Part shown: positions 21,001 to 24,000 of the stretch, one piece after another
Numbering within the stretch: position 1 is the first letter of the stretch
Layout of the letters: every line of letters starts with the position of its first letter
Origin: Puniceicoccales bacterium
GTDB taxonomy: Bacteria; Verrucomicrobiota; Verrucomicrobiia; Opitutales; LL51
DNA: 64,000 bases
Direction: 5' to 3'
Assembly: GCA_031255715.1 (NCBI GenBank)
Contig: JAIRRZ010000030.1
Span: forward strand, 349-64,348
Program-made: the position numbers

Positions 21001-24000
21001 AAACTACCAATAACGAGTAGTTTTGATCCGAGTGAAGGAAAAATAGAAGAGAAGCTCAAAAAAGTTTTAAATATTGGGACAGTTGATGGATTAGTGATGC
21101 AGCTTTTGCGGCCGGAAATCAAAGATCGGAGTTTATTGACGCCCATACATTTTCGGGCAAAGATCCGAGAAATTCGGGAACTACTAAAGGTCAATCGGGA
21201 TCAGCGAACAGGTATTAACCCTGAGCTTTACGCACGCATTGATGCCTTGCTACAGGAGGAGGAAGAAAAATCCGAGCTTCTCGATCAATACCGCCACATG
21301 TTACTATTGGGATAGTAAGAAGGTGGAAAATTAAATCTACTCACGATGGAATTTTTTCACTTTGAGTGGATTTTTGCTATCCATGGTAAAATTCTTCTAT
21401 TCAAGATGAAGTTCTTCCACTCGAGGTGAAATTTTTCTATTCACGATAAAATCCTTTTATCTAGACTATCACTTGCGGTGAAAATTTTTCATTCACGGTA
21501 GAATTCCTCCATTCGGTCTTCTATTTAGAATAGAATTTTTTCATTTTCAGCTTACTTTTTTCCTAATGCAACCTTGGCATCCTCTAATGTTGTTATCTCT
21601 TTCCCCGTTATAACCTTTGCAGCTTTTATAATGATCGTTTGCTTATCATCAGAAAGGCTTGGATTGTCTTTTATGATCGTCAGGGCCGTTTCCGTGATAC
21701 ATTTTTTTATTTCTTTCTTTTGCATGCCAGGTCGAAGAACTGTTTCTCCAGTGGTACGACCTACACCAAGTTCCTCATGCTTCTCCTTAGGAAAATAATC
21801 AAGAAGCTTATTCAAAGAACTACCAAGACGAATGGCAGAATCAAAATCACGACTCTCCAATAGCGATATAAATCCTGCCAATTTTTGGGACGCGTCATCA
21901 GTCTGCGCCAAGGATAACATTTGTTTGTCAAAATCTTTAAGAGCTTGGTTTGGAAGTAAAAATATCGTTAAAACTTCAGTAGGAGTCTCCTTTTTCGGTT
22001 CGCCACGTATGAATTGAATGTCTCCTGCGCGCCGCTCAGTACACTCGAAATTGCTTGTTCGCTGGTCCTGTTCGTCCTTTAAAAGAGGCACATATGCAAA
22101 CTTCTGAACACCATTCTCCTGCGTAGACCGACACTCTTCGAAAACAACTAATGCAGGCACTTCTTCACCCTTAGGCACCATTTTCATAAAAACATCCTTT
22201 TGCAAACCAAATCGAACAGAAGCTCCAACGACAAAACCTTCGCGCACCAGATCTTGTATTCCTTCACGAACCTCATTTTTTATATTGTCTAAGGCTGTGG
22301 AATTATCGTATATTTTTGCCAATAACTCTCCCGCTTTACCACTTTCGTCGTCCAACCAGCTTGGATCTTTTATGGTATTCATCAACCCATCGATGATACC
22401 TTTCATTTCAGTTTCCAAAAACTGCTTTAACTCATTTTTTAAAGTCTGCTCTTTGCAATCAAGATTGTCATACAATGCGCATAAACATGAGAAGCTTTCC
22501 GCTCTCTTTAATGCATCCACTTCTTGATTTTTAACACTTTCTTTCCACCCATTCATCTTTCCTTCGTAATCAACTGTCCCGTTATTCCCTTCCTTACATT
22601 TTACGCTATGCTTTGCGGTTGCTCCCAATAGTGCAGCTTTCTGTTCCTCTGAACATAACTCCTTCTTATGCTTGTATTGATCCTTTAAAATCACATGTTT
22701 AAATTTCTTAAAATCTCTCGAAGAGATTTGTACGGTCCTACTTGAATTTAATTCGGACTTCATTTCAACTTTCGGCTTCCCAAACCACCGAGCTTTTTTA
22801 TCGTAACAACATAATTTATACCATTTATTTGCCCCTCCACCGTTTTCGTTTCGCCTCTCTTTGCTTCTCTACGCGCCGCATTTATTTCTTCCTTAAATGC
22901 AGTAACTTGTGTTTGAATTTTAATCATTTTTACTTCTCTAATTGCGAACATGCTATAATTAATTCACCATTTTGCAAGCTTTATTTCCTCTTGCATAAAT
23001 CTCATTTCTTTCAGCAATTTTTGTTGTTTTTACAAATAAATATACCTTCCTTATTCGATGCAATTGCACGGTTGAGCGAAATTATTTCATTTACGATGGA
23101 ATTATTTCACCCACAATGAAATTTCTCCATTTGTAGTGGAATTTTTTTTCAAAAAAATAGAATTTCTATTCCGAAATCAATTTCACAAAAAAATGGCCAT
23201 CATATCTTTTACGATCGCCATTGTTCATTTTCTAAATCTATTTCACTTTTTTCTAATTCTATTTTCTTTTATTTATCGCAATTAAATCACAATTAATTCG
23301 CCTTTTGCGAGTTTTTATCTATCTCCTTTGAGCAATTTTCGGTATTCCTGCAAATAGGTACGCACCTCATCCGATGTAATTACACGCTCGGGAAATGTTT
23401 TTTTAGCTATCTCAATATAGCGATGGCTCTCATCCGATATCATCTCTAACCAAAATTTTCCCTCCATATTGTAAACATATTCATAGCGTAAATCGCAGTT
23501 CCATAGACGTACAAATGATAGCGTCGTCACCCGATCTCCCATCCAATCCCTAGATAGGAGCGTCGGCATATCGCCATCGGATATAACCTTTGCCCAAACT
23601 TTTAATAAATTCTGTGCGGGAATATTAAATAAATTATCATAATGTAAAAATTGATCCATCATGTAAAGCAAATGCCCCTTAAGTCCGCGATAGCCGCGAC
23701 CAGACCCACTGCGATGACTTACCCAACCTGGAATACTCCCCGCTAATAATGCCGCCTTATGATACATAAAACGATTGCAGTGCTCAAAATACACTGAAAA
23801 TGATTTGTCATTGAAAGACTCAAAATTTCGACGAATAATGGCGATCATTTCCTCCTGGCCATAGCGAATGCTCGCAAATCCATCAAAGTTGCGCAAAAAA
23901 TCGAGCTTCAATGAAAAATAAATGATTGGCCATGGATCTTCACCGCGGGACATCGCAAATAAAACGCGAGGCGAAATTACACCCGCCCGTTCCATTGCCC

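Follow-up and report, generated by a model that had tools for sequence, protein, structure and literature searches.

Positionally conserved arrays of a phased 20-bp repeat in the type III secretion region of a termite-gut Puniceicoccales bacterium

The centromeres of plasmids pSK41, R1 and F consist of repeats that are bound cooperatively by small dimeric proteins. The repeats of the pSK41 parC centromere are reportedly 20 bp long, those of sopC are 43 bp long, and iterons are phased at about 22 bp. Sites of another form have been described by Yokoyama et al. for Lrp-like archaeal proteins. These sites follow the rule abcdeWWWedcba, and the site in the FL11 crystal is TGAAA[AAT/ATT]TTTCA (PMC2715240). 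In the FL11 complex, the thymine at a and the thymines at d and e are read through hydrophobic contacts, Ser36 tolerates either G or A at b, and the central A:T pairs are uncontacted and needed for bending (PMC2715240). The targets of archaeal Lrp proteins are groups of imperfect sites that lie two or three turns apart on a single face of the helix and are bound cooperatively with wrapping of the DNA (PMC2995911). In this study, we analyzed a 64-kb stretch (the window) of a metagenome-assembled genome (MAG) from the termite gut, annotated at NCBI as a Puniceicoccales bacterium (phylum Verrucomicrobiota). A preliminary description of the window had noted arrays of a degenerate 20-nt repeat at three intergenic sites. 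We found that these arrays are real, conserved in position and under position-specific selection, and that they are neither coding sequence nor RNA hairpins.

The unit is repeated head to tail with the consensus T-Y-R-N-R-R-T-R-R-A-A-T-T-Y-T-T-Y-Y-A-Y over 67 units from three genomes (R, purine; Y, pyrimidine). The main array, at site 2 (21321..21544, plus strand), occupies the whole gap between the stop codon of yscX (21315) and that of a minus-strand gene encoding a 403-aa protein (21552), starting, as originally stated, 6 nt after the last gene of the gatekeeper operon. It contains 10 recognizable units, equivalent to 12 ancestral units minus two 8-nt deletions. The exact 20-nt register proposed for positions 21341-21460 is retained by the units there, but two apparent 32-nt units (21461-21492 and 21513-21544) proved, by comparison with a sister genome, to be two units each with an 8-nt deletion. 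The array at site 3 (23071..23190, plus strand) lies between the terminator region of a minus-strand gene for a 290-aa protein and the start of the minus-strand operon that encodes a 63-aa and the 403-aa protein, whose start codon at 22951 follows about 120 nt downstream. Six units had been counted in it, of which four are good and two degenerate. The array at site 1 (9685..9768, plus strand) lies between the stop codon of a TPR gene (9684) and the terminator of a minus-strand gene for a 430-aa protein; this array is likewise present, with two or three recognizable units instead of three to four.

Several lines of evidence support head-to-tail 20-nt units at all three sites. A weight matrix of the unit, trained on the units of the same window so that the independent confirmation is the arrays in other genomes, gave 14 plus-strand positions with at least 14 bits in the window, where shuffled sequence would lead one to expect 0.9. 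All but one of the 14 belong to three clusters (21341-21544, 23071-23150 and 9702-9749), and the isolated match at 16018, which lies inside a gene, is probably due to chance. Tandem Repeats Finder detected a period of 20 at 21389-21460 and 23078-23123. An independent Logan assembly (L001) is 100% identical to the window over 13.3 kb spanning two of the arrays, which are thus not assembly artefacts. Two reverse-orientation look-alikes, at 1128-1150 and 1256-1283, had been suspected, but they score at most 11, and about nine such matches per strand are expected by chance. In agreement with the preliminary description, each unit directly joins the next at a 20-nt period, with no spacers, and no long open reading frame (ORF) runs through the arrays. 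The family also appears to be undescribed, as had been suspected. A search of the arrays against Rfam and a BLAST search of plasmids with an array gave no match, a scan of viral contigs gave only two 2-unit chance matches, and the literature searched contained no description of the repeat or of Puniceicoccales secretion loci. The arrays are a real, lineage-specific family of phased 20-bp repeats.

Scans of metagenome and genome collections were made with an over-loose pattern, and most of the rows they returned were chance matches. Among the matches listed, four loci carry the same unit, in two termite-gut Puniceicoccales MAGs, Gsp477_bin70 (Gsp) and Ncb351_bin30 (Ncb). BLAST revealed that these loci are the orthologous sites of the window arrays, and further relatives were obtained through the neighboring proteins. 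In Gsp all three sites are orthologous, with flanks 85-90% identical and fourfold-degenerate sites differing by 21%, and only these three loci were found in it among the matches listed. For Ncb the fourfold divergence is 50%. Site 1 holds 9-12 units in Gsp (L127), about 18 in Ncb (L136) and about 19 in L249. L250 and L251 retain one or two units as remnants, and the distant L252 lacks the array there. Site 2 in Gsp (L185, 2078-2783) has at least 35 units in exact register and reaches the contig end; Tandem Repeats Finder assigned it 35.4 copies with 70% matches. Elsewhere, site 2 has one unit in L245, which has 85% nucleotide identity to the window, one in Ncb, and about three each in L246 and L247. 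Site 3 matches the window unit by unit in Gsp (L139, 1454-1575); its array was found in the window and Gsp only, and is absent from Ncb and the distant relatives L244 and L247. Copy number per site thus ranges from one to more than 35 among relatives, with the position conserved. The 64-kb window holds three array clusters, and about 60 kb of related contigs hold none elsewhere. An absence of positional conservation in relatives, which the preliminary description had named as the outcome that would speak against its proposal, was not what we found.

The long array in L185 shows no indel across 35 consecutive units at 70% consensus match. The mean nearest-neighbor distance between its units is 2.06, against 2.24 +/- 0.14 in column shuffles, giving no signal of recent duplication, and a comparison of the units revealed neither a higher-order repeat nor a recent expansion. 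These features imply that the long array is old, and the short arrays in relatives are more likely collapses than ancestral states.

The units vary in a position-specific manner. Nine positions (1, 7, 10-13, 15, 16 and 19), all A/T, are 87-99% invariant across the 67 units. Positions 6, 8 and 9 are A or G only and positions 17, 18 and 20 are C or T only, with no transversion in 402 cases although the minor alleles reach 27-49%. As a neutral benchmark, we used 1184 fourfold-degenerate sites compared between the window and Gsp, where the 21% divergence comprises 209 transitions and 44 transversions (ratio 4.75) and where the frequency of change was 28.7% at A/T sites and 14.1% at G/C sites. Between orthologous units, the invariant positions changed in only 8 of 90 cases (9%, against 29% for neutral A/T sites; p = 6.5e-6), which is about three-fold slower, whereas 100 cases at the purine/pyrimidine (R/Y) positions included 36 changes, of which 34 were transitions. 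Mutation bias cannot account for frozen A/T positions, since among neutral sites those with A/T are more changeable than those with G/C, and whole-unit homogenization is excluded as a cause because it cannot treat positions within one unit differently. This leaves position-specific purifying selection as the explanation of the unit pattern.

As the main rival explanation, the arrays could be a minisatellite that is selfish or has no function: slippage would have created an AT-rich 20-nt tandem repeat, which then spread locally and now grows and shrinks through unequal recombination. We consider this unlikely. It is favored by the rapid collapse of the arrays: the same site holds from one to at least 35 copies, L245 has a single unit although it is as close to the window as Gsp is (85% nucleotide identity), Ncb has no array at site 3 and only the single unit at site 2, the window array has lost two 8-nt segments, and the sister MAG has an assembly break within the array. 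Furthermore, 45% of the comparisons of R/Y positions between genomes at site 2 show a difference, the outcome that shuffling of units would produce, which suggests that old R/Y variants were shuffled among units by gene conversion. The pattern of selection, however, disfavors it. A neutral minisatellite, or variable-number tandem repeat, would be free of position-specific constraint, whereas the arrays show the slowed A/T positions and the transversion-free arms described above; mutation bias runs in the wrong direction, and homogenization is blind to position within the unit. The 35 diverged units of L185 without indel or recent duplication, and a consensus that is the same across species with fourfold divergence up to 50%, are also hard to reconcile with it.

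The constrained positions form a purine/pyrimidine palindrome, RRTRRAA-TTY-TTYYAYT, with a 13-bp core, T-R-R-A-A / T-T-Y / T-T-Y-Y-A, in which two 5-bp arms flank a 3-bp T-rich center. The AT-rich core GGAATTTTTTC previously pointed out is better described as this 5-3-5 palindrome, TRRAA-TTY-TTYYA. The cores lie 20 bp apart, i.e., about two helical turns, so that all sites are on one side of the helix.

We then asked at which level the constraint acts. Coding was rejected, as no ORF longer than 47 aa runs through the approximately 700 nt of the L185 array. Action at the RNA level, either in a 3' untranslated region or as a separate RNA forming a hairpin array (exonuclease barrier, terminator or protein sponge), might be suggested by the start of arrays 1 and 2 within 0-6 nt after plus-strand stop codons and by the low folding energy of the site 2 plus strand (-62.3 kcal/mol, z = -4.9 against shuffles). 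However, any quasi-palindromic repeats fold at low energy, and the low value is a by-product of them; the minus strand gave z = -1.8. Across the six arm pairs, 87.2% of the cells are paired, compared with 87.3 +/- 0.8% in shuffles, so there is no hairpin covariation, and A-C mismatches at arm positions occur at the frequency expected from independence. The orientation of the arrays relative to flanking transcription varies by site and genome: site 3, and site 1 in Ncb and L249, do not lie downstream of a same-strand gene, and at site 1 of the window an intrinsic terminator parts the array from the minus-strand gene. The arrays match no Rfam family, and the GGA motif expected of a CsrA-type sponge is not conserved, positions 8-9 being constrained only as R-R. 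An RNA-level role is accordingly extremely unlikely.

Intrinsic DNA bending, another early proposal, is weak. With approximate parameters, a wedge model predicted a curvature per 31 bp of 26-30 degrees for the arrays, 22 +/- 4 degrees for the genome and 79 degrees for a control made of phased A-tracts. Array curvature is thus not well above the genome background, as it would be in curved DNA of the phased A-tract kind. With coding, RNA hairpins and curvature discounted, recognition of the duplex with two-fold symmetry remains, and the substitution pattern indicates that the constraint acts on duplex DNA. The idea of cooperative protein binding on one helical face fits the pattern of conservation, and the arrays are probably protein-binding DNA.

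Which type of protein might bind is suggested by the form of the site. Over the 67 units, positions 7-11 read T-R-R-A-A and positions 15-19 read T-T-Y-Y-A, as in Lrp/AsnC sites, around a T-T-Y center whose third position is T in 61%, C in 31% and A in 7% of units. The spacing also agrees with that of Lrp/AsnC sites, with a 20-nt period in all arrays, exact over 35 units in L185. Protein binding, the type of protein and a regulatory effect are inferred, and we tentatively propose that the arrays are cooperative arrays for a symmetric dimer, Lrp/AsnC-like by site architecture, that act on the flanking secretion-associated genes; this reading is possible, though we would put it at somewhat below even chances. 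A dimeric DNA-binding protein would sit on each unit and neighboring dimers would interact, so that together they would coat or wrap from 60 to more than 700 bp. The nucleoprotein block would lie in the intergenic stretch that follows a secretion-associated gene, behind its 3' end or terminator, and might serve as an operator, silencer or roadblock for the fast-evolving genes that flank it, while the copy number would drift by unequal recombination and collapse. Three arrays, those of window site 3 and of site 1 in both Ncb and L249, come just after the terminator of the previous gene, with their left-hand ends 80-126 nt upstream of the start codon of the next minus-strand gene. The genes downstream of the site 1 arrays in Ncb and L249 encode homologous proteins of 135 and 143 aa with 43% identity.

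Several observations weigh against this proposal. No Lrp/AsnC gene or recognizable DNA-binding regulator was found among the ORFs of the window. Close relatives have arrays of one to three units at the same sites, which shows that large arrays are dispensable, and the window array at site 2 carries its two 8-nt deletions. Known Lrp targets have a handful of sites, and no known cluster has 35, whereas at least 35 strictly tandem sites occur here. The center of the array unit is fixed as TTY on one strand, while the Lrp rule makes no such demand and leaves it as free W. Lrp targets lie in promoters, but window sites 1 and 2 lie between convergent genes and have no promoter. Arrays of the same palindrome type in other phyla adjoin parAB or rep genes rather than Lrp genes. 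Finally, the transition-only variation could partly reflect gene conversion of a few old polymorphisms, given that the background ratio is already 4.75. A bolder version of the proposal, in which the arrays would nucleate a strictly phased chromatin-like filament or wrap of up to 700 bp or more, with one dimer per 20 bp, that insulates or silences fast-evolving type III accessory and effector genes of termite-gut Puniceicoccales, and in which array length would be a heritable dial that can be adjusted quickly, is quite unlikely in our judgment. If true, it would represent a new bacterial regulatory DNA architecture, a satellite-sized operator.

All three arrays are confined to the secretion part of the window. 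Domain searches of the window ORFs identified housekeeping genes at 1-9.7 kb and 28-64 kb (ruvA, ruvX, tkt, secA, clpX, plsX, pth, ssb, a uvrD-like gene, pheS, malQ, a murC-murB fusion, ftsK and aspS). The intervening 9.8-27.7 kb form a type III secretion cluster that includes needle proteins, SctD and the gatekeeper operon sctW-tyeA-sycN-yscX, together with pseudopilins and many ORFans. The gatekeeper operon (18937..21315, plus strand) comprises, by Pfam and NCBIfam matches and gene calls, an SctW-like gene, a 53-aa ORF, tyeA, a sycN-like gene and yscX. The contig is chromosomal, as it carries the core genes secA, clpX, aspS, ftsK and mur.

Each of the three window arrays adjoins, on its right, the 3' end of a minus-strand gene. 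In the case of site 1, the intrinsic terminator hairpin of the 430-aa gene (9774..9803, minus strand), which a terminator scan identified as a 13-pair stem followed by TTTCTT, directly abuts the array and is kept in three genomes through compensatory stem changes. It lies outside the repeat and is part of a conserved module of gene, terminator and array. The hairpin itself looks bidirectional, sits between convergent genes and is a clean case of a terminator maintained by structure. A weaker hairpin beside array 3 (23193..23221, minus strand), found by site alignment and sequence reading, has flanks (AAAAATGG...CCATTGTTCA) that are homologous to the site 1 hairpin, and it is not clearly conserved in Gsp.

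Two fast-evolving ORFans flank the arrays. The 403-aa protein, encoded between arrays 2 and 3 (21552..22763, minus strand), belongs to a hypervariable family that is always convergent with yscX. It matched only itself among 5.8 billion proteins, and searches of Pfam and NCBIfam gave no match; 11 remote relatives of 205-3145 aa have 27-42% identity. Family members of 334-617 aa with about 30% identity occupy the same place convergent with yscX in six related genomes, including the loci L244 3796-5388, L245 10-1671, L246 230-1273, L247 5180-7033 and L248 5696-7003. A single-sequence AlphaFold2 model of the protein was too poor to use (predicted local distance difference test score 41.6). The 63-aa ORF (22760..22951, minus strand), the first gene downstream of array 3, overlaps the start of the 403-aa gene; it is a gene call in L001, has no family match and is weakly conserved in Gsp. 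The 430-aa ORFan (9866..11158, minus strand), whose 3' end and terminator abut array 1, is proline-rich. An alignment of 233 aa with the Gsp counterpart gave 30% identity, in contrast to 90% DNA identity on the other flank of the array, and family searches gave no match. The gene has tandem repeats at 10881-11076; GGC/CGG triplet repeats and a repeat of 75 nt encode long poly-proline runs, and the protein looks like a secreted effector with formin-like proline tracts. Both array-flanking proteins look like secreted effectors.

The divergence of these genes could point to a role of the arrays as recombination substrates, with repeats that flank a fast-evolving secretion gene giving homology for its replacement or deletion between strains. 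The 403-aa protein has about 30-40% identity to its counterparts, against 85-90% DNA identity of the flanks, the 430-aa gene beside array 1 shows the same contrast, and family members that range from 334 to 617 aa occupy one fixed position. However, relatives with one to three units or without a site 3 array carry equally divergent alleles, so the arrays are not needed for this divergence. The units are only about 70% alike and would be poor homologous substrates, and recombination would leave the purine/pyrimidine palindrome and the invariant A/T positions unexplained. We therefore regard this role as very unlikely. A related suggestion was that the arrays mark a rearrangement junction. They do border hypervariable genes, but the gene order and divergence are the same in relatives that lack large arrays and have one to three units, so the array is neither the cause nor a marker of rearrangement.

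The analogy with centromeres and iterons drawn in the preliminary description was reasonable as a working idea. In the fuller reading considered here, the arrays would be centromere- or iteron-like sites of a partition or replication system, either active or a relic of an integrated secretion plasmid or island, and the arrays around the 403-aa gene would mimic a rep gene with iterons on both sides. Partition and replication sites typically consist of tandem direct repeats spaced by about two helical turns, two arrays in direct orientation bracket a single gene, and tRNA genes lie nearby at 13446 and 14530. In addition, other phyla have arrays of the same 5-3-5 palindrome type next to parAB or rep genes. 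A Treponema MAG (CAZURC010000018; L222, 2407-4489) has parA-parB directly followed by a 41-nt x 6.3 array with the palindrome TGAAATWATTTCA and a semi-variable 22-nt part, which is a candidate sopC-like centromere. In Helcococcus bovis (NZ_JBFNFH010000003; L186, 3109-5839), parA, parB and a RepA_N initiator gene occur together, and a 30-nt x 3.6 array with the core GTGAAAAAATTTCAC lies inside the RepA_N coding sequence, as for an in-gene origin.

Other evidence speaks against a partition or replication site. No ParA, ParB, ParM, TubZ or Rep domain was found in any window ORF tested, so that partition NTPase and binding-protein genes, which adjoin a centromere, and the initiator gene and origin features that adjoin iterons, were not found next to the arrays. 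The arrays therefore do not belong to either family. A search allowing up to three mismatches found no canonical parS. There are three array loci rather than one, they lie on a contig with core chromosomal genes, and they have no plasmid or viral match. The bracketed 403-aa protein, a hypervariable ORFan with a two-fold length range that faces yscX, is more like an effector than an initiator. Taken together, a partition or replication role is improbable. A TubZRC or ParMRC layout, with the array followed by the 63-aa and 403-aa genes, was also rejected, since the proteins have no tubulin, actin or ribbon-helix-helix signature. By eye, the unit is only partly like DnaA boxes, and the spacing is wrong for an hrp-box promoter (GGAACC-N15/16-CCACNNA).

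The collection scans yielded other repeats as by-catch. GTGGAA-N3-TTCCAC arrays were found in a Nitrospiraceae contig (L208 284-526; 21 nt x 11.6) and a metagenome contig (L084 992-1120; 23 nt x 5.7); they surfaced only because the search pattern asked for their motif, and their contigs are too short for context. No informative genes were found among the neighbors of the arrays in L084, L208 and L187. Two termite-gut metagenome contigs of the Joint Genome Institute (L035 and L045) contain 46-47-nt satellites with more than 12 near-identical copies and GTGGAATTATTCCAT-like cores, which do not belong to the 20-nt family and may come from the host or from protists.

Other features of the window were also noted. 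Two tRNA genes on the minus strand (13446-13518 and 14530-14603) are situated at the margin of the secretion cluster, with fabF on one side and the needle genes on the other, and the pair could be an island boundary. Two in-frame coding repeats occur in the cluster, a 42-nt x 2 repeat (14937-15022) inside a 250-aa ORFan (14805-15557) and a 15-nt x 2.9 repeat (15919-15961) inside a needle-protein gene. Near the cluster, a 405-aa protein (29640-30857, plus strand) has a eukaryote-type protein kinase domain (Pkinase, E = 6e-11) and is possibly an effector or signaling kinase. A second secretion-chaperone locus (46591-48762, minus strand) has a CesT-family chaperone gene (47083-47565) between 159-aa and 361-aa ORFans; it carries no 20-nt array, so the arrays do not accompany every chaperone or effector locus. 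A 722-aa ORF (53135-55303, minus strand) combines MurC-like Mur ligase N-terminal and middle domains with MurB FAD-binding and C-terminal domains and appears to be the murC-murB fusion.

If the arrays are indeed coated by a protein, no longer tandem operator with strict phasing would be known from any bacterial chromosome, and the arrays would be a natural system in which to follow the assembly of extended structures by cooperative DNA-binding proteins. Array copy number shifts quickly among close relatives, beside host-interaction genes of an uncultured insect-gut symbiont. With A/T positions frozen and G/C positions toggling by transition only, the units also give a clean prediction of the contacted bases. 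If the arrays are functionless, they would show how a minisatellite can mimic an array of binding sites, and they would explain why MAG assemblies break there.

Comparison with described repeat systems places the arrays as follows. Clustered regularly interspaced short palindromic repeats (CRISPR) are, like the arrays, regularly spaced short non-coding repeats, but the array units are degenerate and abut without spacers, which bears out the initial view that they are not CRISPR, and no cas gene was found among the neighbors tested. Repetitive extragenic palindromic (REP) sequences and bacterial interspersed mosaic elements share with the arrays an intergenic location, often at gene 3' ends or in convergent gaps, and an imperfect palindrome per unit. 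REP sequences, however, are dispersed in hundreds of copies and form hairpins, whereas the arrays occupy three loci in strict tandem phasing and show neither the covariation nor the known-family match of a structured RNA. Plasmid centromeres (parC of pSK41 and R1, sopC of F, and tubC) are built, as the arrays are, from helix-phased head-to-tail repeats; the arrays differ from them by lying at three chromosomal loci without adjacent partition genes or plasmid context. The iterons of theta plasmids (P1, F and R6K, and in-gene RepA_N origins) are likewise direct repeats of about 20 bp, or about two turns, that sometimes flank one gene, but the arrays have palindromic units, bracket a hypervariable ORFan, and have no Rep protein or DnaA boxes. 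The Lrp/AsnC rule gives the best fit to the architecture of the unit, as a resemblance. Both systems have imperfect, clustered sites on one helical face with a center spacing of two turns. The array positions equivalent to a, d and e are frozen and those equivalent to b and c are purine-degenerate, a degeneracy that Lrp sites share at b, and the array variant TGAAA-TTT-TTTCA equals the FL11 crystal site.

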